Positions 11,779 through 52,566 of a stretch of 64,000 nucleotides of DNA are shown here, in pieces. Location of the stretch: the IMG/VR virus record IMGVR_UViG_3300045988_140118. The stretch is one strand, 5' to 3'. Under the pieces are notes generated by a model. That model did no database searches, was not told where the DNA came from, and saw only the letters and a program-made list of their open reading frames with translations. The translations under genes and the position numbers were made by a program. The stretch's first letter is position 1. Each line of letters begins with the position of its first letter. Source of the stretch: a virus.

Positions 11779-12996
11779 ATGAAGTATTATTTTTTAAAGT
11801 CTGTTTATGAAACAGGATCGACCACTTCGGTAAGGTTAAGAGCATTGCCAGGTCAAGCTTTCGAGACAGGTGCCCGTATTGACCCTTCTATTAATGTCGC
11901 AGGAAAACCGTTTATACGTACAGCCTATCCTATAGGTACTGTCTTTGGTTGTTCCGATCTGGTCTCTTTTGGCACTTATTATAAAACGGAGTCGTATTTT
12001 CCTATAAATATTTCGGAGAGTGATTTGAAAGATAAATATCATAAAGCTCCTGAAGATATGCTACGTGCGTATGAATCGTTTATAGGACTTGCTCTTTCCG
12101 AAACAGACGGTGATTCTGAGGAAGCTGAGGAACCGCCAGTTAAGAATACCTATCTTTCCAAAATGAAGAAGAATCCTAATTTTAAGGTTCCCACTGTTCT
12201 TTCTGATGGATTCTACGTACAAGAAGATATTTGGTATTTATTGTTACGTAATATCAGATCACAAGTAAATACTTTAATGGTAGGTCCTACAGGAACGGGA
12301 AAGACCGAATTGGTAATGCTTGCTTGCAAGAAGCTTGGAATTTCATGCTCTGTTTACGATATGGGAGCCATGTATGATCCGGTAGCTGGTTTGTTAGGTG
12401 TTCACCGTCTGCATGAAGGGGGAGTTTCTGTTTTTGACTACGCTAAATTTACGAAAGATATTTCAAAACCTGGAGTAGTTCTTTTGGACGAACTTTCCCG
12501 TGCTCCGGCTACTACTAATAATATTTTGTTTCCTTGTCTAGACTCTAGACGATCTCTCCCGGTTGAAATTGCCGGAGGAAATGATTTGAGGGAAATACCC
12601 GTTTCTCCGGAGTGTTGTTTTATAGCTACTGCAAATATAGGGTCTGAATATACCGGTACTATGGATATTGACCGTGCGTTGCAAAACAGATTTTTCCCTC
12701 TGGAACTCTCTTATTTGCCGCCTGATGAAGAGATCAATGTTTTGAAAAAACGCTGCTTTATTGGGCGTGTTAATGCGGGACATATTGTAGCGGTTGCAAA
12801 TAATATACGTGACTTATATATAAAACAGGAGATTAGTTGTTCCATCTCTACAAGAGAAACATTAATGGCTGCTGAGTTGGTAGCCGATGGTTGGTCTGTT
12901 TTAAGATCTTTGGAACTTTCATTCTTGCCTCTGTTTGAAGGTTCAGGAAGTGATGGGGAAAGGGGTATCGTGAAAAAAATCATTTCAAGTAGATAG
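11779..12996 (+). CDS. MoxR/CobS-like AAA+ ATPase
   Basis: Walker A GPTGTGKTE, Walker B VVLLDELSRA, and ATAN...DRALQNRF. Confidence 0.85.
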   Translation: MKYYFLKSVYETGSTTSVRLRALPGQAFETGARIDPSINVAGKPFIRTAYPIGTVFGCSDLVSFGTYYKTESYFPINISESDLKDKYHKAPEDMLRAYESFIGLALSETDGDSEEAEEPPVKNTYLSKMKKNPNFKVPTVLSDGFYVQEDIWYLLLRNIRSQVNTLMVGPTGTGKTELVMLACKKLGISCSVYDMGAMYDPVAGLLGVHRLHEGGVSVFDYAKFTKDISKPGVVLLDELSRAPATTNNILFPCLDSRRSLPVEIAGGNDLREIPVSPECCFIATANIGSEYTGTMDIDRALQNRFFPLELSYLPPDEEINVLKKRCFIGRVNAGHIVAVANNIRDLYIKQEISCSISTRETLMAAELVADGWSVLRSLELSFLPLFEGSGSDGERGIVKKIISSR

Positions 12997-13168: not shown

Positions 13169-15055
13169 ATGGAAAGTGTTGATGAACGTGTCTCTAAAGA
13201 AATAGATTCTTTATTAGGAGATTGGTTAGATCGTGGATCTACTTATGTAAAGACACGAAAGTCCGGAAGAATTGGGTGGGAATCTTCTTTAGAAGAAGGG
13301 TCTTCTTATTCTTCGTATTATTTGGAAGCTCCTTCTACCAGAGAGTTAATCAGAAGAGCATACCCACTGGCAAGGGATATGCTTGTTGCAATGAATCCTC
13401 CTTGTAAGTTTAACGTGCAGATAAGTCCAGGAAAGATTGGCGGTTGTACTGATGGAAAAACTGTTTTTGTAAAAACCGGAGTTTTTGATGACTCTGAGTT
13501 AGAGCCTTCCGAAATGCTAGATATATTTCTAGGTGTTGTGGTGCATGAAGGATGCCATCTGTTATATACAGATATGTCGTTACTTTCTGATACCCGGTTA
13601 GACTCTCTGAGTAAGAACATATTTAATATCTTGGAAGACGAACGTATAGAGACTATCTGTGGTGATCGCAAACCAGGATTTTCTCGTTTTATTGAAAAAG
13701 TGAAATACTACCTTTTCGATAAACTTTTTATTGAGGATACTGCGTTAACTCTGGAAGAAAAACCACTATTTGAACGTTTTATGATCTCTTTTCTTCAGGT
13801 TGTTAGGTATCCCAGGTATGTGAACAAAGATGCCGTGGGAGAGTTTCTTTACCAGTTTTCCGAAATAAAAGATTTACTTCTTCCTTTTCCTACTGACGGA
13901 AAAACTACTTTGGAATGTTCTTTAATGATTGCAGATATTATCCGTGACCTGTATATCGAAGAAGAAAAGAAACGTGACGAGGAAAAGTCAAAGGGAGGAA
14001 AAGAAGGAGATGGGGAAGGATCTTCTGATGGTGATTCCAGTGTCGATACTGAAGCTACTAGGACTTCCCGTGCTTTTAAACGTCTTGAAGAGGATGCTAA
14101 GAAATTCAGCAAAACGTTAGATAAGTTATCTTCCTCTCCTAGTGAAGAAGGTTTGGGCAAAGAAGATACCTCCAAGGAAGTGTTGAAAGATGGAGGTTTA
14201 CTTGGTGAGTTATGTGAGGGTAGAATTGAAGTAGGTGATCATGATTCTTATTTTAAGAAAGCCCCTGCTGCTAAGGGACCGTATCTATCCTCTTTAGGCA
14301 AAGTGTCGAGGTATATTCCTTCTGTTTCTAGAGTTATTAAGGGTCATTGTAAGGAGTACCGGCTTATACATAGATCTATGCGTAGTGGTATTCTTGACAC
14401 TAATAAGCTTGCCGAAGCCATTCAGGGTGTTCCGACTGTTTATTTGCGGGAGGGACAGGTATTTACTGATAAAGTAGCTGTGTGTGTTCTTATTGATGAA
14501 TCAGGATCTATGTGTGGTGGAAGTATATCCGGAGGAAGCAAAATGGACGCTGCTAAGGATGCTGCTGTATTATTGAATGAAGCCGTTTCCTCGTTACCAG
14601 CCATAGAATTATTTATTTACGGTCATTCAGGTGATATGCGTTATTCGGGTGCTACTGAATTAAATGTGTATAAAGAACCTGGATATTCTCCTAAATATGC
14701 TTTAGGCTCTGCTGTTGCTAGAAGTCAGAACAGGGACGGTATCGCTATTCTTGAAACAGCAAAAAGAGTTAGAAAGTTTACGAAGAATCCTGTCCTCTTT
14801 TTTGTAATTTCTGATGGCGCTCCTGCTGCTGATTCTTACGATGGCATGCAGGCTATACAACATACTAAAGATGCGGTATTACAAGTGGAGAAAATGGACT
14901 TTTCTGTTGTACAAGTTTGCATAGACTCGTGCTATGATCCTAAACTGATGTTTAAACATTATGTCATACTAACAGATATTGCGAGACTTTCTATTGATTT
15001 AGGAAAGGTGATAAAAAACGCAATAGTAAAGAAAGCAAAAGTACATACCTTATGA
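13169..15055 (+). CDS. vWA-domain protein with N-terminal HExxH metallopeptidase-like domain (CobT/DUF2201-like)
   Basis: HEGCH motif, acidic Ser/Gly linker, and MIDAS motif VLIDESGSM in the C-terminal vWA domain. Confidence 0.8.
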   Translation: MESVDERVSKEIDSLLGDWLDRGSTYVKTRKSGRIGWESSLEEGSSYSSYYLEAPSTRELIRRAYPLARDMLVAMNPPCKFNVQISPGKIGGCTDGKTVFVKTGVFDDSELEPSEMLDIFLGVVVHEGCHLLYTDMSLLSDTRLDSLSKNIFNILEDERIETICGDRKPGFSRFIEKVKYYLFDKLFIEDTALTLEEKPLFERFMISFLQVVRYPRYVNKDAVGEFLYQFSEIKDLLLPFPTDGKTTLECSLMIADIIRDLYIEEEKKRDEEKSKGGKEGDGEGSSDGDSSVDTEATRTSRAFKRLEEDAKKFSKTLDKLSSSPSEEGLGKEDTSKEVLKDGGLLGELCEGRIEVGDHDSYFKKAPAAKGPYLSSLGKVSRYIPSVSRVIKGHCKEYRLIHRSMRSGILDTNKLAEAIQGVPTVYLREGQVFTDKVAVCVLIDESGSMCGGSISGGSKMDAAKDAAVLLNEAVSSLPAIELFIYGHSGDMRYSGATELNVYKEPGYSPKYALGSAVARSQNRDGIAILETAKRVRKFTKNPVLFFVISDGAPAADSYDGMQAIQHTKDAVLQVEKMDFSVVQVCIDSCYDPKLMFKHYVILTDIARLSIDLGKVIKNAIVKKAKVHTL

Positions 15056-15313: not shown

Positions 15314-15613
15314 ATGTCTGGAATGATAGAAAATCCTCAAATTAAAACAAAGAAATGTTCTGTATGTGGTCAGGAACTTCCCCTTTCTTCCTTTTCGAAG
15401 AATCCAGGTATGCGGGATGGTTATTTGAATACTTGTAAGATATGCCGTAATGAAAAAGCTAAGTATCGAAAGGCTCTTAAAAAAGACGAGCCGTATCCGA
15501 ATCCCGATCTAGCTTCGTTCACCCCTTTACAATTAATAACCGAGTTAAAAGTAAGAGGTTACAAAGGAGACCTTACTTTTGAAGAGGTGAAAATTCATAG
15601 AATAAAGTTATAA
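15314..15613 (+). CDS. zinc-ribbon protein
   Basis: CSVCG...CKIC four-Cys motif. Confidence 0.55.
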   Translation: MSGMIENPQIKTKKCSVCGQELPLSSFSKNPGMRDGYLNTCKICRNEKAKYRKALKKDEPYPNPDLASFTPLQLITELKVRGYKGDLTFEEVKIHRIKL

Positions 15614-16476
15614 TGGTAAATATAGGAAAACTCTTAAAAGAAGCTTACTCACCGAGAAAGAAAAAGATGACGGAAAAAGTTTCCGTTTCTGAGTTATTGA
15701 ATAAGGCTTGTGCTGATGGTATAACCGAAGCAGGGTCTTTTTCTCTTATGGGAATAAGAAGACTTTTGAAAAAAATTCTTCGTTCTTTAGATGACGATTT
15801 TGATAGGGATAAATTTTTCTCCATGTTCATGGAACTCTATGCTCTGGTAATGGCACCCTCTAAAAGAGCCAAAGGAGTTTTCCATCCTTCCAGCTTAATG
15901 GAGGATTGTCCCAGACAATTAGTTTATTCCCTATCAAGATGTCCTCCTAGTGATAAGAAAGTAAACACTGTGTCCGGAGAGTTACAACGTATTTTTGACA
16001 CAGGTACTTGGAATCACATTTATTTTCAGGCTTTGTTATATCGGTTAGGTCTTTTGCAACAGGCGGAAGTTCCGGTAATCAACAAAGAGAAGTATATAAA
16101 CGGTAAAGCCGATGGTGTTTTTAAAGATTCTGTTTTTGGAGAAAAAACCGTTCTAGAAATTAAGACTATGAATGATTTTAATTATAGAAAGGCTATCTTT
16201 ACTCCTTTTAAAAAACACGAATTTCAAGCGTCCCTCTATGCTCGTGAATTAGGTGCTACTAAGGTACTTTATTTGTATATCAATAAAAATACCTGTGAGA
16301 TTCGTGATTTTTTGAGGCCCTTGCAAGAAGATATGTTGCTAGCTGCTGATAAGAAAATGGATTCTATAATCGAGTGTGTTGAGGACGGTACCCTACCAAA
16401 GAGAAAGTGTGCTACTGAAAGTTGTGATACTGCCTTGAATTGCCCTTATAGAACACGCTGTTTTAAAGATTTATAA
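15613..16476 (+). CDS. Cas4/RecB-like PD-(D/E)XK exonuclease with Cys cluster
   Basis: HPSSLMEDCPRQLVY, D...EIKT, QASLYA, and C-terminal C-x4-C-x5-C-x5-C. Confidence 0.8.
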   Translation: MVNIGKLLKEAYSPRKKKMTEKVSVSELLNKACADGITEAGSFSLMGIRRLLKKILRSLDDDFDRDKFFSMFMELYALVMAPSKRAKGVFHPSSLMEDCPRQLVYSLSRCPPSDKKVNTVSGELQRIFDTGTWNHIYFQALLYRLGLLQQAEVPVINKEKYINGKADGVFKDSVFGEKTVLEIKTMNDFNYRKAIFTPFKKHEFQASLYARELGATKVLYLYINKNTCEIRDFLRPLQEDMLLAADKKMDSIIECVEDGTLPKRKCATESCDTALNCPYRTRCFKDL

Positions 16477-18275: not shown

Positions 18276-18995
18276 ATGGAGAAAAAAGTATTATTGTTTT
18301 CCGGAGGTTTTGACTCCACTTTACAGGAATGGCTGATTAAACCTGATGTGTTATTGTATGTGGATATGAAGACTTCTTATTCGGAGGTTGAAATAGAATT
18401 TTTAAAAACACTTCCCACTTATTATACAGATCGGCTTATTATAAAAGAGTGCCCCCTAGGAGAGTATGAACGTGAAAATAAGTACCTCCCTTATCGAAAT
18501 TTGATATTAGGGACTCTTGCTATGGAATATGGTCAACACGTTTACTTTGGGTTTAATGAAGCTGATAACGCTCCTGATAAAGATGATCTCTTCTTAAAAA
18601 GAATCACTTCCTTATTCAAACATTTGAACGTAAATTGTATTGGAGATATGGGATGGGAGAATAGGAAATTCAGTTTTAACGCTCCTTTTAAACATCTGAC
18701 AAAAACAGAACTGGTTGCCAAATGCCTTAAAAAAGGAATGGACCCTGAAGTAATCAGACATATCCGGTCTTGCTATGACGGAGTTTCTAAGATAGGTTGT
18801 GGTGTTTGTCGCCCTTGCATAAATCGAGCAGTGTCTCTGATAAATAACGGTATTTATTCAGATGACCTCTTTGATGCTCCGGTTACTCCTGAGAGTATAA
18901 AAGACTTGATCAAGAAAACCGAGGAATCTGAACACTCTAAAAATTATTATGCCGACCTTAAAAAAGCATATAAACGGATACGACAGAAGGGATAA
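18276..18995 (+). CDS. queC: QueC-like 7-cyano-7-deazaguanine synthase (PP-loop ATPase)
   Basis: N-terminal VLLFSGGFDST PP-loop and C-terminal Zn motif C-x9-CxxCxxC. ATG 18276 preferred over TTG 18246. Confidence 0.8.
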   Translation: MEKKVLLFSGGFDSTLQEWLIKPDVLLYVDMKTSYSEVEIEFLKTLPTYYTDRLIIKECPLGEYERENKYLPYRNLILGTLAMEYGQHVYFGFNEADNAPDKDDLFLKRITSLFKHLNVNCIGDMGWENRKFSFNAPFKHLTKTELVAKCLKKGMDPEVIRHIRSCYDGVSKIGCGVCRPCINRAVSLINNGIYSDDLFDAPVTPESIKDLIKKTEESEHSKNYYADLKKAYKRIRQKG

Positions 18996-19881
18996 CAAGG
19001 GAATATTGTTTTTCTCTGCTTCTTCTGTTGGAGATACTAAACAGCTTCTTGATTTTGGTATCCGGGAAATTCTTGTCTCGTATTTCTATATCAAAAAAAG
19101 TCTGAGCTTCTATGATGGAGTACTGAAAACTATCCAAAAAGACAGAGGTCTTTTTATGACTGACTCAGGAGGATTCAGTTTTATGGGAACTACCCTAACT
19201 GATGAAATGCGGACGGAAAAGTACTGGATACCTTATCTAGAGGAATATGTTGATTGGCTTCGAAAACATAAAGACCATATTTATGTAGCTGCTAATCTAG
19301 ACCTTGATAAAGTGGTTGGTAGGGATGTGGTCAGAAAGTGGAACAGAAAATATTTTGAACCCTTGGAAAAAGAGGGACTTCAGATAGTTTATGTTGCCCA
19401 TGAAGATGACCAGCGTGACAAACACGGGATCGAACACTTTAAAGAATATTGCCGTTCCTACAAATATGTGGGTATTAATCAATCTCAGAAAGATTATGCT
19501 TCCCGCTTTTATCAGATAGCAAAACATTATCGTGTAAGAGTTCATGGTTTTGCCTGGACCGAGTTAGGTATTGTTAAACACTATCCGTTTGCCTCCTTAG
19601 ATTCTACTACATGGTTGGGAGGTGTCCGTTATGGAACTACCTATGACTATGATGGAAAAAATTTTCGCACCATAGACTACAAACATAAATACCGTAGAAA
19701 AGCTCGCAGACTAAAATATGAATCTATCGGAGTTTCTATTCATGATGTTACCGGAAACAAAGAAGATCGGTACGCTGTTAATAAAATGAATCTTTTAGGA
19801 TGGATTGGTTTTAGAAAAGAGTATCTTCGTGTAGCTAATTTAAAGTTACATTCTAAAAAAGTAAGCACTTATGTTAGATGA
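18949..19881 (+). CDS. dpdA: DpdA-like DNA transglycosylase (TGT family)
   Basis: TDSGGFSF (TGT DSGGFQ-like motif), about 310 aa, overlaps queC. Confidence 0.7.
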   Translation: MPTLKKHINGYDRRDNKGILFFSASSVGDTKQLLDFGIREILVSYFYIKKSLSFYDGVLKTIQKDRGLFMTDSGGFSFMGTTLTDEMRTEKYWIPYLEEYVDWLRKHKDHIYVAANLDLDKVVGRDVVRKWNRKYFEPLEKEGLQIVYVAHEDDQRDKHGIEHFKEYCRSYKYVGINQSQKDYASRFYQIAKHYRVRVHGFAWTELGIVKHYPFASLDSTTWLGGVRYGTTYDYDGKNFRTIDYKHKYRRKARRLKYESIGVSIHDVTGNKEDRYAVNKMNLLGWIGFRKEYLRVANLKLHSKKVSTYVR

Positions 19882-20623
19882 AAATATTAAAAAACGAATT
19901 TCCCTAATTACAGAAGCAGGAGACGATATTGATGATTTGAAAGATTGCGTGTGTTCTTTCTTTGAAAAAGGGGGCTGTTCTGATTGTATCGGGTGTCCTA
20001 AAGATGAAGATTCGGTTTTAGGATGTAGGGACTACTACTTGGAAAAGATAAAAATGAATCCGATGGAATTATGGTCAGAGGATTTTGATAAACAAGTAGT
20101 CCTTTCCAGAGATAAAATATCTGTGGATTCTTTAGCCGGTATAGGACTTAATTGCGATTCTTGTATTATGTATGATAAATGCCCTTACTACAAGAAAGGG
20201 TATTCCTGTGCGATAGACTGGGTAGGAAGTAATAAACCGGGTACTCCTGCGGAGTTCATGGATTTCTTAGTTTCCACTCAATACGAGCGTGTGAAGAGAG
20301 CAGTAGTCATAGAAAAAATAGACGGTGGTGTGCCCGATGCTAATTTATCCGGAGAGTTGGATAGGTTACAATCTTTAGTTTTAGGACGTGTTGATATGGA
20401 TCGTGCGAAATTCTCAGTGAGTGTAGAAGCTTCAGGACCTTCTAGCGCTGCAAAAAGCGGTGGTATCTTAGCTGCTATTTTTGGGAAAAGTACACCTTCC
20501 GAACCGGAGCCGTTAGCCATTGCAGAGAAACCTGAATCCAGATCTGATATTACAGATATTACTGAGTATGAACCCGTAGAAGAACCTGTAAAGGTAAAAC
20601 GTAGAAAGAGAGGTGCCGAATGA
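19871..20623 (+). CDS. Cys-rich protein with acidic C-terminus
   Basis: Two Cys clusters (CVCSFFEKGGCSDCIGC and CDSCIMYDKCPYYKKGYSC); overlaps the dpdA stop. Confidence 0.55.
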   Translation: MLDENIKKRISLITEAGDDIDDLKDCVCSFFEKGGCSDCIGCPKDEDSVLGCRDYYLEKIKMNPMELWSEDFDKQVVLSRDKISVDSLAGIGLNCDSCIMYDKCPYYKKGYSCAIDWVGSNKPGTPAEFMDFLVSTQYERVKRAVVIEKIDGGVPDANLSGELDRLQSLVLGRVDMDRAKFSVSVEASGPSSAAKSGGILAAIFGKSTPSEPEPLAIAEKPESRSDITDITEYEPVEEPVKVKRRKRGAE

Positions 20624-27779: not shown

Positions 27780-27923
27780 ATGAAAAAGTACATTGGAACA
27801 AAACAAATTGAAGCGGAACCTATGACAATGGGAGAAGCTTTTGAGAAAAATTTACTGCTAACAGATGGTATAGAACCTACTGAAGTTGAAAAAGAGAAAA
27901 ACAGGTTACCATGTGAAGGATGA
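27780..27923 (+). CDS. N-terminal fragment of a gp49/Sf6-gp66-like domain (frame-disrupted)
   Basis: MKKYIGTKQIEAEPMTMGEAF, the family's N-terminal half. The continuation lies in the +1 frame. Confidence 0.5.
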   Translation: MKKYIGTKQIEAEPMTMGEAFEKNLLLTDGIEPTEVEKEKNRLPCEG

Positions 27924-28503
27924 ATATGGTTGTGAAAGCTGGTCGCCTGCCGAACCGTTTGAGGAAGCATATAAATGCGCTGACACTTTCCTTGACCGTT
28001 TGCAGATTGAGCATGATGATCTTGTAGAAAAGTATGACAAGTGCGAAAAGTTTGTAGATTCGGATAAGTTCCGTGAAATTGTACAAGAGGATTATCCGGC
28101 ATTTCTGTTATCATTGCAACGAAATGTGATGAATAGATATGGAAGTATTATTGAACAAAGAATGTCCATAGCTAAAGGAGAAACAAGCATTACAACACTG
28201 CCAAGAATGTCCTTTGGAGATGCAATCGAAGCGTTGAAGTTCGGTTTTGCCATCCGTAGAAAAGGCTGGAACGGTAAAGGTCTGATGGTATTCAAGCAAG
28301 TACCTGCCTACATAGAGAGTGACATCATTCCTAAGATGCAATCGCTTCCACAATCTGCAAAAGACCTTATTCTGAAAGGTAAAGGTTTTATTGACTATAC
28401 AAGTCAGTGCCTTATCTACAACGAGAATACCGGGCGTGCAGATTCATGGGTTCCGTCTATCAGTGATGTGTTTGCCGAAGATTGGGAGATTGTTACAAAA
28501 TAA
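27886..28503 (+). CDS. rest of the gp49-like domain fused to a DUF2829 (Tad2-like) domain
   Basis: GYHVKDEYGCESWSPAEPFEEAY then MSFGDAIEALKFGFAIRRKGWNGKG...SWVPSISDVFAEDWEIV. No ATG start (TTG only). Confidence 0.6.
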   Translation: MKKRKTGYHVKDEYGCESWSPAEPFEEAYKCADTFLDRLQIEHDDLVEKYDKCEKFVDSDKFREIVQEDYPAFLLSLQRNVMNRYGSIIEQRMSIAKGETSITTLPRMSFGDAIEALKFGFAIRRKGWNGKGLMVFKQVPAYIESDIIPKMQSLPQSAKDLILKGKGFIDYTSQCLIYNENTGRADSWVPSISDVFAEDWEIVTK

Positions 28504-28519
28504 TTTTAAAAAGTATTTT

Positions 28520-29584
28520 ATGCCAAAATATAGAAAAAAACCAGTAGTTATTGAAGCTGTTAGATTCATTGTTGGGGCAGAAGTTCCAGTAATGAATTTC
28601 TTAGGTTTAACAGAAGAGTATCAATTAGTAGACAGTAAAGCTGCTCCTATACATTATAGAAATGATGTTGCTGAAATATTTATATATCAACCAGAAGTAG
28701 CTTCTCTTTATATTTATACGTTAGAAGGAAAAATGGAGGCTAAAGACGGTGATTACATCATTAAAGGTGTAAACGGTGAATTTTATCCTTGTAAACCGGA
28801 CATCTTCGAGAAGACTTATGATCTTGCTGACGAAGATTCTGAAAGCCTTATTGTAGATACGATTTATTCCTCTTTTATGGGAGAAGTAAATAAATTCGGG
28901 ATCGGTTCTTTATGTACGTTTGTACGATTACAAGGGTGTAACCTCAGATGTTATAAACGAACTTGCGGATTTTTATGTGACACCCCTGAAGCTCTCTTAG
29001 TCAAGAAGAGTTTTCCTGAAAAAGAGAAGACAATTCCCTGTATAGTTGATACGGTGGAAAAACTGGGAAACAAAATAATCTGTTTAACCGGAGGAGAGCC
29101 TCTACTACAAGAGGGAGTTGAAACTCTTCTTAAAACGTTATCTTCAAAAGGGTATAACGTAGTAGTGGAAACTAATGGAAGTGTGGGTATTTCTAAGTAC
29201 CGAAACATAGAAAATGTTAGTTTTGTAGTAGACTATAAACTACCCTCGACAGGAGAAGATGGTAAAATGGATTCTACTGTGTGGCCTCTTATGAAAGCAG
29301 ATGACTATCTAAAATTTGTGGTTTCAAACGGCGATGACTTACTAAACCTACGTACATGGTTAGGACTTTACGCTGCTTCTTTTAAAGGAATTATTGCAAT
29401 AGGTTCTATGTGGGAAGTATGTTGTTTTAGTCAAGAGGAACTGTTGGCCCACATATCTTCTTTATCTGTGGAATTTCCCTCTGTAAGATTTTGCTTAAAT
29501 ATGCAAACCCACAAACTGATAAGCCTTTACGATCAGACTCCGAAACTTGACTTACAAAGGATAAAAATCAAAAAAGATTTGTAG
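28520..29584 (+). CDS. queE: QueE-like radical-SAM 7-carboxy-7-deazaguanine synthase fused to an N-terminal ~105-aa phage domain
   Basis: RLQGCNLRC...CDT, CLTGGEPLLQ and VVETNGS; N-terminal domain KKPVVIEAVRF...GDYIIKGVNGEFYPCKPDIFEKTY. Confidence 0.8.
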   Translation: MPKYRKKPVVIEAVRFIVGAEVPVMNFLGLTEEYQLVDSKAAPIHYRNDVAEIFIYQPEVASLYIYTLEGKMEAKDGDYIIKGVNGEFYPCKPDIFEKTYDLADEDSESLIVDTIYSSFMGEVNKFGIGSLCTFVRLQGCNLRCYKRTCGFLCDTPEALLVKKSFPEKEKTIPCIVDTVEKLGNKIICLTGGEPLLQEGVETLLKTLSSKGYNVVVETNGSVGISKYRNIENVSFVVDYKLPSTGEDGKMDSTVWPLMKADDYLKFVVSNGDDLLNLRTWLGLYAASFKGIIAIGSMWEVCCFSQEELLAHISSLSVEFPSVRFCLNMQTHKLISLYDQTPKLDLQRIKIKKDL

Positions 29585-36722: not shown

Positions 36723-37400
36723 ATGTTAGATAAAACAAAAACCGATTCCGTATTAGGAGCAAGCGTAAATGAAATGCTTCTAGAGTTGGGAGTTGAAACT
36801 CCTATGGTTGGTTTAACTCCGTTAACGTCCGAAGATAAATACGCCAGTATAAAAGATGCTGTTTTTGATATTATGCAGTGTTTGGGTCTTGACACGGAGG
36901 ATGACAGTTTGGCACGTACTCCCCATAGAATAGCCAAGATGTTTTTGGACGAATTGTTTTGGGGACTTGACTACGATAATTTCCCGAAAATAACAACTAT
37001 CGAGAATAAAATGCAGTATAATTCCTTGCTAATGGAAAGACACATTAAAGTTCATTCTATGTGTGAGCATCATTTCGTACCCATTATCGGAGAAGCTTTT
37101 ATTGCATATATTCCCAACGAACGGGTGATAGGTCTTTCAAAGATCAATCGTGTTGTTGAGTTTTTCTGTAGAAGACCGCAAGTGCAAGAACGTTTATGTG
37201 AACAGATATTCCATACTTTACGCTATATTTTAGGCACCGAAAGCGTTGCCGTTCTTATTCGGGCAGAACATTCATGCGTAAAAGTAAGAGGTATTGAAGA
37301 TATTAACTCTGACACGCAGACGTGCAGATTCTCCGGTGCGTTTAATGAAGTAGCTACCAGAGGAGAGTTTTACAGTTTAATCGGCATGAATAATGGCTAA
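36723..37400 (+). CDS. folE: GTP cyclohydrolase I
   Basis: SMCEHHFVPIIGEAFIAYIP...IGLSKINRVVEFFCRRPQVQERL. Confidence 0.9.
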   Translation: MLDKTKTDSVLGASVNEMLLELGVETPMVGLTPLTSEDKYASIKDAVFDIMQCLGLDTEDDSLARTPHRIAKMFLDELFWGLDYDNFPKITTIENKMQYNSLLMERHIKVHSMCEHHFVPIIGEAFIAYIPNERVIGLSKINRVVEFFCRRPQVQERLCEQIFHTLRYILGTESVAVLIRAEHSCVKVRGIEDINSDTQTCRFSGAFNEVATRGEFYSLIGMNNG

Positions 37401-40470: not shown

Positions 40471-40941
40471 ATGGCACAGTTAACTTCGTCTACTGTCCAA
40501 AAGATTCGGGTACTGCTTGCTTCTTGGACTTCTGTTAGACAAAAAACGCATGTGTTCCATTGGAATATTACAGGAAGTAGTTTTAATGAACTGCATAAAT
40601 ATTTTGAGGAACTCTATGATGAAGCAGTGAATAGTATGGATAGTTGCGCAGAACGTCTACGACAAGTAGGAGTTTTCGTAGAAATGTCGCTAAAAGATGC
40701 TGCCGAATTATCCGTTCTCGGAGATGCCGGATTTTCTACGACTGATGACCGGGAAATGGTAATCGACCTAATCAGATCTTATGCACAGCTTACCGCTTTA
40801 CAAAATGAAATTTATTCGGAGGCTGATGAAGTAGGAGATTATGTAACGGCTGACTTAATGACGCAGCTAAGTAAAACGAACGAGTTAAGAAGTTGGTTCT
40901 TATCTTCATGGTTAGGAGAACAGAATCAAACCCAGTTATAG
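40471..40941 (+). CDS. Dps-family ferritin-like DNA-protection protein
   Basis: HVFHWNITGSSFNELHKYFEELYDE...DSCAERL matches the Dps ferroxidase region. Confidence 0.8.
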   Translation: MAQLTSSTVQKIRVLLASWTSVRQKTHVFHWNITGSSFNELHKYFEELYDEAVNSMDSCAERLRQVGVFVEMSLKDAAELSVLGDAGFSTTDDREMVIDLIRSYAQLTALQNEIYSEADEVGDYVTADLMTQLSKTNELRSWFLSSWLGEQNQTQL

Positions 40942-41097
40942 AATCATTTTTAAGTCATAATTGATTAGCTATAAAATTCATTCGATCCCGGACGTACAAA
41001 AAATACTTGTGAAAGTAGAGTCCAGTAAAATTAATTCGATTTGCATATTATGTAGGAAAGGATTGCCTGTGAAGGTAGTCCTTTTATTTTTATAAGT

Positions 41098-41137
41098 ACC
41101 CTCGACTCTCCTAAAAAAGAGTTTGAGGGTATTTTTG
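41098..41137 (+). terminator. rho-independent terminator
   Basis: ACCCTCGACTCT pairs with AGAGTTTGAGGGT (about 11 bp, one bulge), followed by ATTTTTG. Confidence 0.7.
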
Positions 41138-41145
41138 TGCCCAAG
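41130..41145 (+). promoter_or_regulatory. TAnnTTTG box with conserved extension TATTTTTGTGCCCAAG
   Basis: Near-identical to the boxes at 50130 and 49382; faces the ORF-free region. Confidence 0.35.
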
Positions 41146-41827
41146 TTAGTTATAACTATATGTACCTAAAAAATCGCATTTTAAAACTACCTATTTTTCC
41201 CTATTTATTTTCCTTTCTACCTAGTTTCTTATAACTACCTGATAAATTCCTTTTCCAGTAATTAAAAAACGCTCCCATGAAGCGGTATGTCTTACTATAT
41301 GCAATAAGGAGAATCCCCTATATAAAGACGGTTCTGCAAACAAGTCCCCCGGAAAGTTTGCCAAAAAGCTAAGGATTTTTGCGGATAAATGTTTTAATAC
41401 TATTATAATAACATTAATACTATAAGTATGTGTAATGGGAGTGATGGGTAAGCAAGAAAGATAGAAATCTCCTATTACTAGATTACTGGCTAGATAGCAA
41501 GAAAACAGGGCTACACATAGCTGTAGGGCAGTGAGCGTTCGTGCAATTATAGAAATTAGCTGTGTATTTACGCAGGTATTTACGCTTATTTAGTTTTAAT
41601 TGGCTGGTTGGTTACTTACTTTTTTAGCTGTTTTTCTTGTTTAGAACCCTGTTTTTACCCTTCTAATTTGAGAAAAGTTAGGGAAGTTTACAAAAACAGC
41701 CTATTTTCTAATTTATGCCATCACTGAGTATCAGATAGTTAGCTCAAAAATTTCCGGGGGTTATATCTTTTTGCCCAATTCATAAAAATCATTACACAAA
41801 AACGAGCGATAACAATAATTAGAAGCT

Positions 41828-41899
41828 AATTAGCGTAATTACGTAGTAAATTAGCCGTGTAACTAATTAAATTACGCATGCAGAATTAAAATTAGCGTA
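41828..41899 (+). repeat. iteron-like array, 4 x AATTA(G/C)(C/G)(G/C)N at 20-21 bp spacing
   Basis: AATTAGCGTA at 41828, AATTAGCCGT at 41849, AATTACGCAT at 41870, AATTAGCGTA at 41890. Confidence 0.7.
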
Positions 41900-41979
41900 G
41901 TTTTATTTTAGTTATTCTTTCTACTTTCTTATATAACTAACTTAGCGATTAAAAATAAACTGGAAATTACGTGCGGAAA

Positions 41980-42131
41980 TTAATTTCTACTTTAATTCTT
42001 ATCTTATACTCCTATTATATACTAGAAACTAAATTAATTTGCGGCGAATATTTTAATTTCTAGTTCTAATTTTATCTATGTCTTATGATATAGGTATACA
42101 TAGAATAAAATAGCGTGCGAAATTAAATCTA
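41980..42131 (+). repeat. degenerate ~70-73-bp-period repeats (GCG-rich core + TTAATTTCTA)
   Basis: TTAATTTCTA at 41980 and 42053, TTAAATCTA at 42123, each preceded by a GCGG/GCGTGCG core. Confidence 0.6.
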
Positions 42132-42484
42132 CTTTGCTAAGCGTAGCGATTCTTTCTAATAGAAATTAAATAAGCCCAATTAAAAACGGCAAATAAACTA
42201 ATTACTTTTAGTAAACCATATACTAAGTAGAGATACTTACTATTACCTACTAAGTAACCGATGGATTTATTCAAAGAAACATCGAAGGAAAGATAACTTT
42301 AAATTTTTTGCGGCAATTTCTTATTCCTTATTCCCAGAAAGATCTACCCGTAGATACATAGAGTGATTGGACGTGAGCTGACTGAGCTGAACCAAGAGAG
42401 GGGTACCCTTAAATGGACTTAGCAGGGCGGTTAGGTTCGGGTAGTACGCTTAGGTCACAGAGTGGAAAAGACGACCTGTATTTT

Positions 42485-42570
42485 TGTGACTGCATGTGTG
42501 ATAGACAGTGTGTGGTGTGTAGTGTGTGTCTGAGAAATGTAGTGTGGTGGTGTGTGACTGCGTGTGTGAT
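42485..42570 (+). repeat. TG-rich tract bounded by an 18-nt direct repeat
   Basis: TGTGACTGCATGTGTGAT (42485-42502) and TGTGACTGCGTGTGTGAT (42553-42570) match at 17/18; (TG)n-like sequence between them. Confidence 0.8.
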
Positions 42571-42695
42571 CGAACGAAAAAGGACGCTACACGGTACGAC
42601 TATCTAATGTGTATACCTATACAGTTACTTTGCATGTGATAACTGTTAATTGATCTAAAAATAACAATGCCTTTTGAATAAAACTTTCTTTTCAG

Positions 42696-42726
42696 TTTGT
42701 TATCTAACATAAAATTACTATCTTTG
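42696..42726 (+). promoter_or_regulatory. Bacteroidota-type promoter, TTTG-N19-TATCTTTG
   Basis: Exact consensus match; 42 nt upstream of ATG 42769. Confidence 0.6.
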
Positions 42727-42768
42727 TGTATAAAAGTTAATCACCTAACAACATTAAAAGACAAGGTT

Positions 42769-49329: not shown

Positions 49330-49367
49330 GAAGCGCAACAATTAATTTTGTTTGCGCTTCTTTTTTT
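49330..49367 (+). terminator. rho-independent terminator
   Basis: GAAGCGCAA pairs with TTGCGCTTC (9 bp), followed by T7. Confidence 0.7.
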
Positions 49368-49381
49368 GTCTAAAAGATTAG

Positions 49382-49397
49382 TATCTTTGTCCCAAAG
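49382..49397 (+). promoter_or_regulatory. -7 box with extension TATCTTTGTCCCAAAG
   Basis: TAnnTTTG 36 nt upstream of ATG 49426; the extension is shared with 41130 and 50130. Confidence 0.45.
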
Positions 49398-50076: not shown

Positions 50077-50099
50077 CTAAAATAAAATCACTATCTTTG
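50067..50099 (+). promoter_or_regulatory. Bacteroidota-type promoter, TTTG-N21-TATCTTTG
   Basis: Exact consensus match. Confidence 0.6.
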
Positions 50100-50100
50100 C

Positions 50101-50137
50101 AGGTGAGCATCGGTAAAACGGTGTTCACCTATTTTTG
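50101..50137 (+). terminator. hairpin + T-run (terminator or 5'-leader structure)
   Basis: AGGTGA...TCACCT with an inner CG/CG pair, followed by TATTTTTG. Confidence 0.5.
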
Positions 50138-50149
50138 TACCCAATAGAA

Positions 50150-50381: not shown

Positions 50382-50912
50382 ATGGGAACTATTACAAGAG
50401 TGTTTGAGTTTGATTGTGCCCATCGGGTAATGAATGAAAAAGTAAAATGTTTCAATTTGCATGGTCACAGGTTCAAAGCGGAAGTGACCCTTTCTTACTC
50501 AGAGAAAGCTGCTTTAGGTTATGCAACCGACTTTAAAGAATTGAAAAGGATTTTAGGTGATTTCATAGACAGGTTTTTAGACCATGCCTGTTTACTGAAC
50601 CCCGAAGATCTGGGTCTTATTACCATGTGCTCCGAAAATAAATGGCGCTTGTGGATTATGGGATTAGGACATCATGCGGATGTTAATCCTTCTGCTGAGA
50701 ATATTGCTTCTGAACTTTTCTACATCTTCAGACAGTTTTTTCCTAAAGACTCTCAAACCAGTATTGAGAAGATCCGTTTATACGAGACTCCTAATTGTTG
50801 GGTAGAGGTTACTGGCTACGACTATGAAGCCACAGAATCTTTTCAAAAAGAGATTATGAAGTGGAGAAACTCAAAAGGAACATTCAACTACGATATAAGA
50901 ACTGATATTTGA
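50382..50912 (+). CDS. queD: QueD-like 6-carboxytetrahydropterin synthase
   Basis: FEFDCAHRV...CFNLHGHRFKAEV...GYATDFKELK...LDHACLLN. Confidence 0.85.
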   Translation: MGTITRVFEFDCAHRVMNEKVKCFNLHGHRFKAEVTLSYSEKAALGYATDFKELKRILGDFIDRFLDHACLLNPEDLGLITMCSENKWRLWIMGLGHHADVNPSAENIASELFYIFRQFFPKDSQTSIEKIRLYETPNCWVEVTGYDYEATESFQKEIMKWRNSKGTFNYDIRTDI

Positions 50913-50913
50913 T

Positions 50914-52566
50914 ATGCCAAAACTAAGGAAGAAAACTCCTGATGAAGAAGGGTATGTATTTCCCGCTACTGGTAAGAGTATAGATGATATACATACTGAA
51001 GACATTGCCGGAAAATCTATCTCTTTTGATGCCCACGAGATTACAGGTAAGATTATCGAGTTCGGGAAAGTCCTTACAGGAATCTCTTTGTACAAGTATC
51101 AAGAAGACATAGCTTATGGAATTATATATTCCGTCATTACTTTTTCCGGAGATGTAAAGACTGTGCTTCTTTCCAGACAGTCCGGTAAGTCTGAGGTAAT
51201 GGCATTTGTAATTGATACACTTACCGTTCTAATGCCGGCACTTGCAAATATTATCCCTGAGTTCGAACAATTCCAGACCGGATTTCGAATAGGACTGTTT
51301 GCTCCACAAAGTGATCAGGTAGAAACTACTTATTCCAGAGCACTTGCCAGAATTAATTCCGCTAATGCGGAAATGGTTTTAGATGACCCTGATATTGGTG
51401 TTTCTTTGGAAAGTGCCGTTCGTTTGCAATTAAGCAACGGTTCTTTTCTTGCCGGACAAACTGCCAGTAAACAATCTAAGATCGAGTCTAAAACTTATGA
51501 CCTAGTAATTGTTGAAGAGGCTCAGGACGTTGATGACTTTATTGTCAGCAAGTCCATAGAACCTATGCTTTCTTCTACTGCCGGAACTCTTATTAAAGTA
51601 GGTACTACTGGTATGACTAAGAATCACTTTTACTACGAGATTCAACATAACCGAAACAGTGACCGAAAACTAAAAGATCCCAGAGTACGGAATCATTTTG
51701 AGTATGACTATAAAAAGATTATTCAAGACCGTAAAAAGCAATATGATTTAGACCACAAACGTTTCCACCTTAATTACGAGGCGGATGTTTTGCGTAAAAA
51801 AGCTCGTTGGGGAGAAGACTCTCAGGCATTTAAACTTGCTTATGCGTTGATATGGGACTTGGAAAGCGGTATGCTTATTACCGATAAAGAGTATAATAAA
51901 CTTCTTAACCGTAAATTAGGCTATCAAGATCCTACCGAAAGAGACTTGGTAGTTGCTGGTCTGGATATTGCTAAAAGTCCTGCCAGCACTGTCTTGACTA
52001 TCGGAAAAGTTATCCCAAACGAAGATCCTTTTGAAAGAAAGAAAAAACAAATTCTTGCGTGGGTTGACCTGAAAGGACTTGACTATGAAGCTCAACACCG
52101 TGTTATCATGGATTGTATTGTCGATTTCAATATTTCTATTATCTTTGCGGATTATACAGGTGTCGGTAAGCCAGTAGTAGACCGTCTATCATTTGCTTGC
52201 GGAGAATATGTATCGGTTGTTCCGTACACATTTACTTCTCAGAGTAAATCGGATATGTGGTATAACTTCATTAACGAGATTCAGACGCAAAGTTTGATTA
52301 TCCCGGCTAATAAAACAGTTCGTGAATCTGAGGAATATAAATGCTTCGAGGAACAGATTAAAAACTGCCAAAAATATTATAACGGCTCTTACTTAGTCTG
52401 TGAAAAGTCGGAGGGATTTTTTGATGACTATGTAGATAGTACAGCTCTTATGTGTTTGGCGGGTAATGACGAACCGGAGATTGAAGACGAGATGGAGGTA
52501 ACTGACAATCCGTTGTACTCGAATATCTCAGATACAATTAATGCACTTAGAAGATACTCTTTTTAA
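50914..52566 (+). CDS. terL: terminase large subunit
   Basis: Walker A-like LSRQSGKSE and Walker B DLVIVEEAQ; 550 aa, upstream of the portal. Confidence 0.85.
   Translation: MPKLRKKTPDEEGYVFPATGKSIDDIHTEDIAGKSISFDAHEITGKIIEFGKVLTGISLYKYQEDIAYGIIYSVITFSGDVKTVLLSRQSGKSEVMAFVIDTLTVLMPALANIIPEFEQFQTGFRIGLFAPQSDQVETTYSRALARINSANAEMVLDDPDIGVSLESAVRLQLSNGSFLAGQTASKQSKIESKTYDLVIVEEAQDVDDFIVSKSIEPMLSSTAGTLIKVGTTGMTKNHFYYEIQHNRNSDRKLKDPRVRNHFEYDYKKIIQDRKKQYDLDHKRFHLNYEADVLRKKARWGEDSQAFKLAYALIWDLESGMLITDKEYNKLLNRKLGYQDPTERDLVVAGLDIAKSPASTVLTIGKVIPNEDPFERKKKQILAWVDLKGLDYEAQHRVIMDCIVDFNISIIFADYTGVGKPVVDRLSFACGEYVSVVPYTFTSQSKSDMWYNFINEIQTQSLIIPANKTVRESEEYKCFEEQIKNCQKYYNGSYLVCEKSEGFFDDYVDSTALMCLAGNDEPEIEDEMEVTDNPLYSNISDTINALRRYSF

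Follow-up and report, generated by a model that had tools for sequence, protein, structure and literature searches.

According to the portions of Benler et al. 2021 (PMC8008677) consulted, phages of the type analyzed here belong to those detected most often in human gut metagenomes. In the same portions, the family 'Flandersviridae' is described with a structural block, followed by DnaB/DnaG/PolA and then by a long series of ORFs, most of which have no assigned function, and the present phage has the same layout; a Bacteroides host, Dps-like genes in the family and closed-circle assemblies are shared as well. Neither a non-coding region nor an origin nor a topoisomerase is mentioned there. In the literature searched, nothing was found on the replication or DNA packaging of these phages or on BS162P1, one of the related phages, and no report of satellites of Bacteroides or Bacteroidota phages was found. 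It is established both that satellites copy cis sites of their helpers and that small satellites of virulent phages are packaged as concatemers (PMC10803314).

We analyzed 64,000 nucleotides (64 kb; the window) of a phage whose full contig is 92,557 bp. It encodes a DnaC-like loader (2118-2789), a DnaB helicase (2786-4066), DnaG primase and PolA. Its relatives are phages of 83-92 kb that agree with 'Flandersviridae' in size, gene order and host, and the closest isolate infects Bacteroides salyersiae. Set against the family description only, as given in the consulted portions of PMC8008677, the phage itself agrees with 'Flandersviridae' (genome of ~85 kb, colinear modules, Bacteroides host). 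An earlier note on this DNA had pointed to a region without ORFs downstream of the Dps-like gene. We concluded that this ORF-free stretch of a common gut Bacteroides phage is conserved and is probably a DNA control region.

The ORF-free region and its borders

According to the earlier note, neither strand has an ORF of 60 aa or more between the stop of the Dps-like gene (40941) and the next plausible ATG (42769), with one exception that it took for a repeat artefact. This was borne out. The single ORF of at least 60 aa in 40942-42768, on either strand, was 42413-42607 (64 aa), which sits in the GT-rich tract and had a counterpart in none of the relatives. The stretch 40942-42412 (1471 nt) was the longest in the window without such an ORF on either strand. 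All genes of the window are on one strand and the 1.8-kb gap is the sole large gap. The other gaps were short, as the note had said; the runner-up measured 258 nt when both strands were considered, and 325 nt when the plus strand alone was counted.

The description of the region as repeat-laden held statistically and for short words, but long or tandem repeats were absent except for the (GT)n-like tract. We counted 132 repeated 8-mers against 71 +/- 10 in dinucleotide shuffles (z ~6; ~2x), and the maximum in any other 1.8-kb segment of the 64 kb was 93. AATTA[GC][CG] words were 19x denser in the region than in the rest of the window. The cumulative GC skew showed no switch across the gap at the scale of the window. 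A local C-rich-to-G-rich pattern is present here and is missing in some lineages. From left to right, the region contains two tandem terminators, short repeats with a 450-nt AT-rich stretch, Block A, Block B, the GT-rich tract and a promoter (Table 1).

Table 1. Positions in the window of the features assigned to the ORF-free region and its left-hand neighbor.
Feature	Position	Strand	Basis or remark
Ferritin/Dps-like ORF	40471-40941	+	Pfam PF00210
3' untranslated tail of Dps-like gene	40942-41055	+	aligns weakly to BS162P1
Intrinsic terminator T1 (hairpin and T-run), ending the Dps operon	41056-41091	+	terminator scan, 13 pairs
Intrinsic terminator T2 with tail TATTTTTGTGCCCAAG; left edge of conserved cassette	41096-41145	+	terminator scan
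C/T-rich tract with CTACCT-type short repeats	41187-41241	.	GC skew -0.68; repeat families D2, D5, D6
Block C: ACTATATGCAA, AT-rich TAATACTAT stretch, then ATGTG..TGGGTAAGC	41294-41453	.	motif recurrence
Short conserved palindrome GGGCTACACATAGCTGTAGGGC	41508-41529	.	near-identical in L067/L068
Short-repeat set 1: AAATTAGCTGTG / TATTTACGCAGG / TATTTACGCTTA, three units, 12-nt spacing	41553-41593	.	read from sequence
Block A: ..GTTTACAAAAACAGCCTATTTTCTAATTTAT..TATCAGATAGTTAGC..TTTTTGCCCAATTC	41662-41790	.	conservation
Iteron-like cluster 2: 5-6 (A/T)AATTA(G/C)(C/G)GT(A/G) units, one orientation	41814-41914	.	spacing 9-12 or 20-21 nt
AT-rich stretch with many GCGG-AAAT motifs; candidate unwinding region	41850-42300	.	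composition profile
Block B module: GAGCTGA x2, GGGGTACCCTTAAATGG (42400-42416), 22-nt spacer, GGGTAGT (42439-42445), CCTGTATTTTTGTG	42372-42490	.	conservation
GT-rich, C-poor, length-variable tract	42485-42573	.	repeat family D3; TRF period 7
Inverted repeat CAGTTAC..GATAACTG upstream of promoter	42622-42645	.	L067 lineage comparison
Bacteroides-type promoter, TTTG at -33 and TATCTTTG at -7, for the gene at ATG 42769	42693-42726	+	spacing of TTTG and TAnnTTTG box; kept in L067/L068

The strong hairpin with a T-run noted before at 41098-41137 is present, as the second of two tandem terminator-like hairpins, T1 and T2. At the place of T1, BS162P1 has a hairpin with another stem sequence and the same CTGTGAAAG-type loop. 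A contig 97% identical to this one (L003) has a 480-nt insertion with a small ORF precisely between T1 and T2; because of this small gene, T2 would be the terminator of a gene lost here. The succession of a hairpin and TATTTTTRTGCC(C)AAA is kept in the L067, L073 and L081 lineages. The likenesses reported among the boxes were also found: TATTTTTGTGCCCAAG at 41130, TATTTTTGTACCCAAT at 50130, TATCTTTGTCCCAAAG at 49382 and TATTTTTGTGAC at 42479. An exact 11-mer repeat, GTATTTTTGTG, occurs at 41129 and 42478. For the T-run box at 41130, the best reading is that it forms an intrinsic terminator's tail; both TAnnTTTG boxes, at 41130 and 42479, follow hairpins and are read as terminator tails.

At the right border, the promoter, with TTTG 15-30 nt upstream of the TAnnTTTG box, is kept in L067 and L068, and AAAGTAACTAnnTTTGTAA-type boxes precede the first gene in BS162P1 and L006. 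The L067 lineage has the inverted repeat at the same place, with its stem shifted to GTTAG..CTAAC.

Conservation in related phages

The earlier note had raised the possibility that homologous phages encode a protein here, and had proposed a comparison for conserved synteny. In every relative retrieved through the Dps-like anchor, down to ~47% Dps identity, a gene-free gap of 1.25-2.16 kb was found in the corresponding syntenic position, so that none of these phages encodes a protein here. Repeat cluster 2 and the two Blocks A and B showed 85-100% identity against a background of 65%, and are probably under selection at the DNA level. The part of the earlier reading that called the region cis-acting agrees with its conservation as DNA in all phage relatives, with the lack of a coding signal, and with the terminators on its left and the promoter on its right.

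The left half of the cassette was conserved to various degrees. The C/T-rich tract was partly kept in the L067 lineage, and ACTATATGCAA and TGGGTAAG-type motifs of Block C were found in 6-7 of 8 other lineages. BS162P1 has CTACGCATACGTGTAG, which is related to the palindrome GGGCTACACATAGCTGTAGGGC. Block A was ~90% identical to L067/L068 (background 65%) and 84% identical to BS162P1 over 73 nt. Used as a search probe, the 15-mer TATCAGATAGTTAGC gave mainly chance matches. Cluster 2 was ~85-90% conserved against the L067 lineage and holds both exact WAATTAGCGTR copies of the whole window, and a window-wide scan allowing 2 mismatches showed no enrichment of this word; AATTAGCGTA recurs in 6/8 lineages. 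The repeat units are 10-12 nt long and degenerate, with 2 exact copies. The AT-rich stretch has 23-29% G+C against a window mean of ~37% and is the most AT-rich 450 nt; its TAATTTGCGG is common to 7/8 lineages, and the low-GC 'aaaaa' block just upstream of Block B is also present in the L067 and BS162P1 lineages. The sequence of the repeats varies by lineage, being of AATTAGCG type here and GGGTAA (x24) in L081, as would be expected if the repeats co-evolve with a binding protein encoded by the element. GGGTA was enriched 3-15x in the gaps of relatives with a bias to the plus strand. There was no perfect DnaA box in the region, which has only the one-mismatch words TGTGGGTAA and TGCGGATAA.

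Block B (GGGGTACCCTTAAATGG-N22-GGGTAGT) is the sole single-copy, family-wide invariant non-coding site found. It occurs once in the window and is almost invariant across lineages; its spacer was precisely 22 nt in all 14 phage gaps (14/14), two of which have a variant left arm. Each relative's gap has one full Block B, to which some lineages add a partial CC(C)TTAAAT-type motif ~100 nt downstream, and Block B was also found in ~40 further metagenome and MAG loci. Since it is single-copy in 64 kb, Block B is not a promoter class. We also considered it as a target of a poxvirus-type topoisomerase IB, with CCCTT in its invariant 17-mer, an attractive candidate that we rejected because Block B is kept in the window, in whose 64 kb (of the 92.6 kb of the full contig) no TopIB gene was found, the syntenic block included. 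TopIB genes are located 1-2 kb downstream in BS162P1 and the L071-L079 lineages, and one lineage reads CCCGTT where Block B has CCCTT.

To the right of Block B, the GT-rich tract, with a GC skew of +0.55 to +0.59, has one copy of a 21-nt direct repeat at either end (42485-42505 and 42553-42573). Indels in this tract distinguish the close relatives L067, L068 and L069, and an excess of G over C downstream of Block B was seen in nearly all lineages.

Chromosomal islands carrying the cassette

About 1.2 kb of the cassette, in the same order, was also found in small tRNA-integrated islands of Bacteroidales. Such islands occur in MAGs of Odoribacter and Parabacteroides, on contigs that are chromosomal. 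Island-phage blastn scores were 44-67 bits, compared with at most 39.7 for shuffles and at most 35.4 for reversed sequences; one island (L118) was 83% identical to the phage L071 over 709 nt. The whole cassette was recognizable in two islands, and the others have it in part or have Block B alone. In island L111 the motifs can be read directly: it carries a recognizable Block A copy, the ACTATATGCAA and TGGGTAAG-type motifs and AATTAGCGTA. The GT-rich tract is missing from the islands, in which the promoter follows 10-40 nt after the end of Block B and a GTTAT..ATAAC inverted repeat, and a conserved structured RNA leader lies next to the cassette. No island protein tested against the window and 17 phage loci gave a match.

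The sole delimited island, L101 (~7.5 kb), is flanked by 13-nt direct repeats and sits at a tRNA gene; besides variable cargo, it codes for two tyrosine recombinases and an HTH_17 protein. As is expected of satellites, the islands are small integrated elements with integrase and excision genes and without virion genes. From these sequences we infer that the islands are satellite-like, that they copied the phage cassette, and that such phages are their helpers. By analogy with the helper cis sites of known satellites, the cassette may be enough in cis to tap the replication and/or packaging machinery of the phage. A bolder version, which we put forward tentatively and would not expect to hold as a whole, is that the cassette is a complete cis replication-and-packaging module and the islands a new family of minimal phage satellites. 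If this is true, their layout would be integrase, excision gene, cassette, promoter, structured RNA leader and variable defence-like cargo, and they would encode no recognizable replication or virion protein, borrowing everything by mimicking the non-coding DNA of the helper.

Function of the region and comparison with known systems

Our main reading, to which we give a probability of about one half, is that the cassette acts in cis as the replication origin and/or as the region recognized for packaging, and that the satellite-like islands copied it. We infer the role of each block, and every functional assignment, as follows. T1 and T2 would stop rightward transcription and the host-type promoter would restart it for the next operon; because of these terminators on the left and the promoter on the right, the ~1.5 kb between them would be transcriptionally insulated. 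The short repeats (set 1 and cluster 2), which are spaced by ~1-2 helical turns, may bind an initiator together with Block A, upon which the adjoining 450-nt AT-rich stretch would open and let the DnaC-like loader and the DnaB helicase enter. Block B may be recognized by one highly conserved protein, either the terminase (at a pac, cos or end site) or an initiation factor.

For an origin of the iteron type, an AT-rich unwinding region is expected, and 41850-42300 is such a region. The candidate initiator is the 257-aa product of 1400-2173, for which no match was found in Pfam, PHROGs, NCBIfam or PDB. An origin inside the candidate initiator gene was also considered and was rejected, as no repeat array was found in or near that gene. 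For a packaging site, a unique recognition site is expected, and Block B is one. It lies outside the terminase genes and their immediate surroundings, with TerL (50914-52566) 8.4 kb downstream; no small terminase was found beside TerL, and the gene just before it is QueD-like. For phages with terminal repeats, adjacency to the terminase genes is not obligatory.

Two of the alternatives turn on what the region encodes. The view that the stretch is decayed coding sequence, with frameshifted gene remnants, can draw on the gene lost between T1 and T2 relative to L003, of which L067 has a degraded form, but this loss explains the T1/T2 junction only and the remainder is gene-free in all relatives. 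Moreover, tblastx matches were spread equally over all six frames and no small ORF was conserved beyond the closest lineage; because of this frame-independent similarity and the unconserved small ORFs, the pseudogene reading was rejected, and we consider its chance next to negligible. The earlier note had also suggested a long structured or decoy RNA. Transcription of the region into non-coding RNA (structured, decoy or antisense), for instance starting at one of the TATTTTTG boxes (41130 or 42479), would be in line with the presence of two TAnnTTTG boxes inside the region, with the GCCCAA extension behind the box at 41130, which is kept in relatives, and with a terminator-like hairpin on the minus strand (41284-41270). 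However, the box at 41130 has A in place of the promoter-defining G of TAnnTTTG in the L067 and L073 lineages, and both boxes stand behind hairpins, as terminator tails do. The Infernal/Rfam and covariation checks proposed by the note gave no family match, whether with the gathering threshold or with E<=1, and no compensatory pair in RNAalifold on 10 and 20 diverged Block B copies. The same procedure, applied as a positive control to the RNA leader adjoining the cassette in the islands, returned 16 compensatory pairs out of 43. No tRNA or tmRNA gene was found in the region, and its folding (z-scores -1.04 and -0.64) was no better than that of shuffles. We therefore regard the RNA reading as very improbable.

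The other alternatives accept the region as a DNA site and differ in its use. In phages and islands alike the cassette lies just upstream of a rightward promoter, a position that fits a role in transcription control equally well. The cassette would then be an upstream control array, with binding sites of a phage or host regulator, for the promoter of the next operon, and the islands would have copied it as a helper sensor that turns on their cargo operon upon phage infection; the late promoters of P4, which mimic those of P2, are a comparable case of helper sensing. The orientation is the same in every context, directly upstream of a TAnnTTTG promoter, at the short distance described above in the islands and with the promoter at 42693-42726 in the phage, and an inverted repeat that overlaps the -33 region looks like an operator. 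We still consider this rather unlikely: a phage promoter with 1.2-1.5 kb of control DNA would be most unusual, Block B in the phages is 200-625 nt from the promoter with filler of variable length between, it is single-copy although the window has many promoters, and the AT-rich stretch with phased repeats suits an origin better. That the gap is instead the junction of the physical ends is unlikely. In this reading a circular assembly would have collapsed a short direct terminal repeat, as in T7 or BRock, with the processing signals on its flanks, and Block B and the GT-rich tract would be the repeat or cleavage region. Genes on one strand with a sole large gap would suit it, as would the closest characterized relatives of TerL, which include that of Streptomyces phage BRock (31% identity), a phage with a 221-bp direct terminal repeat (PMC7453282). 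The left end of T7 is also alike, with GGGGGTACCTAAAG, a G/T-rich repeat, CCTAAAG arrays and early promoters before the first gene at 925, but this likeness covers few nucleotides and might be due to chance. The record of BS162P1, which is marked as partial, has its opening point within the gap, and the scaffold of a third relative begins at a (CA)n tract in the repeat region; however, complete-size contigs of the family open at arbitrary places and the ends within the gap fall at different points, and with no common pile-up point they give no hint of fixed ends in the gap. According to the consulted portions of Benler et al. (PMC8008677), the coverage of one family member is even, and the islands are without the GT-rich tract. 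A plasmid-like maintenance region, consisting of an origin and a partition centromere for an episome or carrier state, is quite improbable. Such a state was a speculation of Benler et al. for this family, whose genomes assemble as closed circles from whole-community metagenomes, according to the same portions of PMC8008677. The short phased repeat arrays resemble type Ib/II centromeres, and some relatives have a ParA/MinD-superfamily ATPase of 415-421 aa 1-3 kb upstream of the Dps-like gene. However, this ATPase matches ParA-type models over its N-terminal ~50-150 residues only and below curated cut-offs, so that it is not a bona fide ParA; it is missing from the window although the gap is kept, and neither a ParB-like gene nor a lysogeny or repressor module was recognized. 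A partition site was rejected on the grounds of this ATPase.

An origin and a packaging or terminal region remain the leading readings, neither of which is provable in silico. The region is the obvious place to look for the replication and packaging of these phages, and the sharing of the cassette alone with the islands is a testable lead to phage satellites in Bacteroidales. What is shared also offers a natural way to define the minimal DNA on which these phages act in cis. The cassette and the GT-rich tract may explain why some assemblies and database records of these phages break or are opened here, and Block B could be a marker to find both phages and islands.

Compared with iteron-type origins (lambda ori, SPP1 oriL/oriR, P1 oriR), the putative origin likewise has an AT-rich stretch, next to which lie what look like clustered, phased short repeats of the same orientation, a loader and a DnaB-type helicase encoded by the phage, and a repeat sequence that changes between lineages. 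The repeats here are, however, degenerate and of 10-12 nt, whereas classic iterons are 17-22 bp, and the region is intergenic, ~38 kb from the replication genes and outside the initiator gene, with no DnaA box and no initiator protein recognized. In genomes with the genes on one strand, the concatemer junction of T7 and the ends of short-DTR phages such as BRock likewise have a long stretch free of genes that separates the last gene from the first. T7 has GGGGGTACCTAAAG where this phage has GGGGTACCCTTAAATGG, each a unique G+C-rich element accompanied by a G/T-rich tract and short-repeat arrays and followed by host-type promoters. The sequence likeness is limited to ~13 nt and may be chance, and this ~92-kb phage is unrelated to T7 and of a family described as contractile-tailed.

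Among satellites that carry cis sites of their helpers (P2 cos in P4, helper cos in cos-type PICIs, P2-type late promoters in P4), an element without a shared protein likewise carries a unique non-coding site of the phage, as the islands do. The DNA shared here amounts to ~1.2 kb in several blocks, far above a cos site or a promoter, and the helper-satellite relation is a putative one. The islands come close to the PICMIs (PMC10803314) in being small (~7.5 kb versus ~6 kb) and site-specifically integrated, in having an integrase and a small excision-type HTH gene while lacking capsid genes, in the apparently virulent helper, which here is a candidate, and in cargo that looks defence-like. PICMIs encode a primase, integrate next to fis and have no helper cis element identified (PMC10803314), whereas the islands are found at tRNA genes, have two tyrosine recombinases, and carry copies of the cassette together with the conserved structured RNA leader.

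Gene content and the gene-free region

The nearest GenBank record was that of Bacteroides phage BS162P1 (88.9 kb), with about 67% nucleotide identity in the Dps gene and 73% protein identity in TerL. A 92,557-bp contig encoded a 99% identical Dps-like protein in the same local gene order as the window. All plausible genes of the window are on the + strand, and a structural block is followed by a replication module and then by many consecutive ORFs, most of which have no assigned function. The encoded proteins include a DnaC-like loader, DnaB helicase, DnaG primase, PolA, RecA, TerL and a portal protein. Compared by description, the phage fits the 'Flandersviridae' in size, gene order and host, as presented by Benler et al. 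(PMC8008677).

The window also carries a 7-deazaguanine (queuosine-precursor) DNA-modification gene set: two adjacent tRNA-guanine-transglycosylase/DpdA-like ORFs, a QueE-like radical SAM protein, GTP cyclohydrolase I and QueD/PTPS (18949-20623, 28391-29584, 36723-37400, 50382-50912). QueD occupies the position directly ahead of TerL at which one would expect a small terminase. TerL spans 1.65 kb (50914-52566), versus matches split in two pieces over about 2.7 kb in BS162P1 (OP172706.1, 9334-12054) and a Mexican gut scaffold (MT835482.1, 11123-13837); this pattern suggests that the terminase gene of those two relatives is interrupted by an intron, an intein or a homing-endonuclease gene. Two compact terminator-and-promoter arrangements were seen at 49343-49396 and 50092-50145. 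In the latter, a canonical TTTG/TATCTTTG promoter is followed, at most 10 nt on, by a strong hairpin and TATTTTTGTACCCAAT, and it could be an attenuator-like leader ahead of the QueD-TerL operon. The long block of small ORFs also holds a gene (27886-28503) for a Tad2-like/Sequestin-type protein, whose family carries the annotation of anti-defence nucleotide sponges; four relatives (L071, L073, L075, L079) have it too, with 58% identity between window and relatives. A MoxR/CbbQ-type AAA+ ATPase is followed by a 628-aa, weakly CobT-like protein, with a Cas4/PD-(D/E)XK-type exonuclease nearby (11779-12996, 13169-15055, 15613-16476).

The earlier note described the DNA between the Dps-like stop (40941) and the ATG at 42769 as ORF-free and repeat-laden. 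Its coding claim held: on neither strand is there an ORF of at least 60 aa other than 42413-42607. No ORF-free stretch in the window is longer than 40942-42412 (1471 nt); the runner-up measures 258 nt for both strands or 325 nt for the + strand alone. The ORF at 42413-42607 (64 aa) is inside a GT-rich tract of variable length among near-identical genomes, and comparison with relatives revealed no counterpart. The repeat claim was right for short words, since repeated 8-mers numbered 132 (71 ± 10 in dinucleotide shuffles; at most 93 in other 1.8-kb windows), but not for long or tandem repeats, of which the region yielded none apart from a period-7 GT tract. AATTA[GC][CG] words were 19-fold denser in the gap than in the rest of the window. 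These AATTA-type repeats are degenerate, with only two exact copies, and their sequence depends on the lineage: L081 has GGGTA x24 instead.

Using the Dps-like protein as an anchor, we fetched the genomic context of relatives in nine lineages. The gap was present without called genes in every phage context, at 1.25-2.16 kb; no homologous phage was seen to code for a protein there. Some relatives have one to three small inserted genes ahead of it. The BS162P1 gap, about 2.05 kb, also follows the Dps-like gene; that record was opened within its gap, and its ends overlap by 55 nt.

Several neighbouring genes were observed in relatives. A 415-421-aa ATPase of the ParA/MinD/Mrp superfamily is encoded 1-3 kb upstream of the Dps-like gene in some of them (L071 1830-3092; L073 1305-2570; L075 872-2119) and not in the window; its model matches cover only the N-terminal part and are below all curated cut-offs. 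An Fe/Mn superoxide dismutase gene adjoins the Dps-like gene in two (L079 3297-3962; L075 2791-3420), and the pair looks like an oxidative-stress auxiliary module just upstream of the cassette.

Anatomy of the cassette

The region was 65% identical overall to that of the L067-L069 phage lineage, with conserved pieces at 85-100%.

Features of the cassette from left to right in the window, and of the island RNA leader
Feature	Position	Remarks
Dps/ferritin-like gene	40471-40941 (+)	Pfam PF00210; left neighbour of the gap
Terminator-like hairpin T1	41056-41091	left edge of the gap
Terminator-like hairpin T2	41096-41145	left edge of the gap; the "strong hairpin" noted earlier
Block C	41294-41453	conserved piece vs L067 lineage
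Short palindrome	41508-41529	conserved piece vs L067 lineage
Block A	41662-41790	conserved piece vs L067 lineage
Repeat cluster	41814-41914	five to six AATTA(G/C)(C/G)GT-type units, one orientation, 9-12 or 20-21 nt apart; conserved vs L067 lineage
GCGG-AAAT motifs		within the most AT-rich 450 nt (23-29% G+C); conserved vs L067 lineage
Block B	42372-42490	conserved piece vs L067 lineage
Inverted repeat	42622-42645	conserved vs L067 lineage
Canonical TTTG/TATCTTTG promoter	42693-42726	conserved vs L067 lineage
Island RNA leader	L111:3215-3415; L086:10470-10665; L101:5520-5715 (minus strand)	about 30 other loci

A 97% identical contig (L003) carries 480 extra nt (6627-7108), including a small ORF, exactly between T1 and T2 (between 41094 and 41098 of the window), and the L067 lineage seems to hold a degraded copy of this insertion. 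The T1/T2 junction is a hotspot of gene gain or loss at the left border of the cassette, and T2 is therefore the terminator of a gene lost in the window. The likeness of the T2 tail, TATTTTTGTGCCCAAG, to the boxes at 50130 and 49382 was confirmed. Three other lineages have the left border marked by a hairpin and then TATTTTTRTGCC(C)AAA, and the G that defines the Bacteroides -7 box in the T2 tail is A in two of them. We therefore take it primarily for the tail of a terminator; a promoter is a second, weaker possibility.

In Block B, AGCT(C)GAA and GGGGTACCCTTAAATGG are separated by 6-13 nt; a variable spacer of exactly 22 nt then leads to GGGTAGT, which is followed by either a T-run or a GTTAT..ATAAC inverted repeat. 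The module is single-copy within the 64-kb window and was found in all 14 phage gaps examined, two with a variant left arm. Downstream of it, nearly all lineages have 100-400 nt with G > C on the + strand. Within its invariant 17-mer, Block B has CCCTT, the cleavage motif of poxvirus-type type IB topoisomerase. A type IB topoisomerase gene is 1-2 kb downstream of the gap in several relatives (L002 1827-2591, L071 6935-7696, L073, L075, L079) and missing from the window's syntenic block; the co-occurrence is probably a coincidence.

Islands sharing the cassette

Scanning metagenomes with Block B gave 46 loci, a few being genomes of this phage family and most another type of element, small tRNA-integrated Bacteroidales islands. 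Their layout opens with an integrase of 409-410 aa that has an arm-binding domain, next to which is an excision-type gene of the HTH_17 kind; 0.7-1.5 kb of non-coding sequence containing Block B follows, then a TAnnTTTG promoter and a structured RNA leader. Beyond the leader come variable cargo genes, whose products include PD-(D/E)XK, Ig-like, FtsK-gamma and NTPase-like proteins, and finally a second recombinase gene and a tRNA gene. The L101 island measures about 7.5 kb between copies of a 13-nt repeat from the 3' end of the tRNA; a 234-kb contig from an Odoribacter MAG bears an island of this type, and a Parabacteroides MAG bears one of another type.

Where the islands are low in GC, their non-coding DNA keeps the order of the phage gap: motifs of Block C, repeats of the AATTAGCG type, Block A, an AT-rich stretch containing GCGG motifs, Block B and the inverted repeat. 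This collinearity scored 44-67 bits in blastn, versus at most 39.7 for shuffled and 35.4 for reversed queries, and one island fragment matched a phage gap at 83% identity over 709 nt. When 24 island proteins were searched by tblastn against the window and 17 phage loci, none matched. The cis DNA is the only thing common to islands and phages.

The island 5' leader, about 190 nt between promoter and first cargo gene, showed compensatory changes in 16 of 43 pairs and a consensus fold of -52 kcal/mol. It had no Rfam match, is absent from the phage window, and may be an undescribed RNA motif.

Function of the cassette and comparison with known systems

With the covariation of the island leader as a positive control, RNAalifold gave no supported structure for Block B from 10 or 20 diverged copies; the sole predicted helix pairs two invariant arms, and is therefore beyond covariation testing. 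Rfam was empty for the region even at E<=1 and folding energies were ordinary. We conclude from these results that the region works as DNA. Of the earlier note's proposals, cis action was supported, the region being conserved as DNA, and a structured or decoy RNA was not; a non-coding RNA is very improbable. Gap-versus-gap tblastx similarity was equal in all six frames, and the gaps had no conserved small ORF beyond the closest lineage; decayed genes are scarcely credible as an explanation.

We give a probability of about 0.5 to the cassette being a cis-acting replication and/or packaging region, because it is transcriptionally insulated at either end and conserved as DNA, its phased, lineage-specific short repeats adjoin an AT-rich stretch, it has one invariant single-copy site, and the phage supplies its own loader, helicase, primase and polymerase. 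The strongest rival, unlikely as it is, is a transcription-control or helper-sensing region, and in both phages and islands the cassette does precede a rightward promoter. A terminal-repeat junction would suit a one-strand genome and the T7-like grammar of the region, and a TerL relative has a 221-bp terminal repeat (PMC7453282), but contig ends gave it no support and we consider it doubtful. There is a slim chance of a plasmid-like maintenance locus, which echoes a speculation of Benler et al. (PMC8008677); the ParA-like ATPase of relatives is, however, absent from the window and not a bona fide ParA.

Under the replication and/or packaging reading, the origin would be made up of the repeats together with Block A and the AT-rich stretch, and Block B would be the site for a highly conserved protein, a terminase or an initiation factor. 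The putative binder could equally be a conserved host protein, since Block B is invariant across elements with diverged or unrelated proteins.

That islands without recognisable replication or virion genes have captured the entire cassette is what would be expected of satellites that depend on a helper for replication and packaging. There is precedent in known satellites, which carry cos sites of their helpers, and in minimalist satellites of virulent phages, whose DNA is packaged in concatemeric form (PMC10803314). The cassette, its invariant site and the sharing with islands are not described in the available text of Benler et al. (PMC8008677), nor in what a limited literature search on Bacteroides phage satellites returned. 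A non-coding origin or packaging region is per se of a known kind; what appears to be new is this particular cassette, the invariant site in it, and the fact that a family of small Bacteroidales islands, which also have an undescribed structured RNA leader, shares the cassette wholesale.
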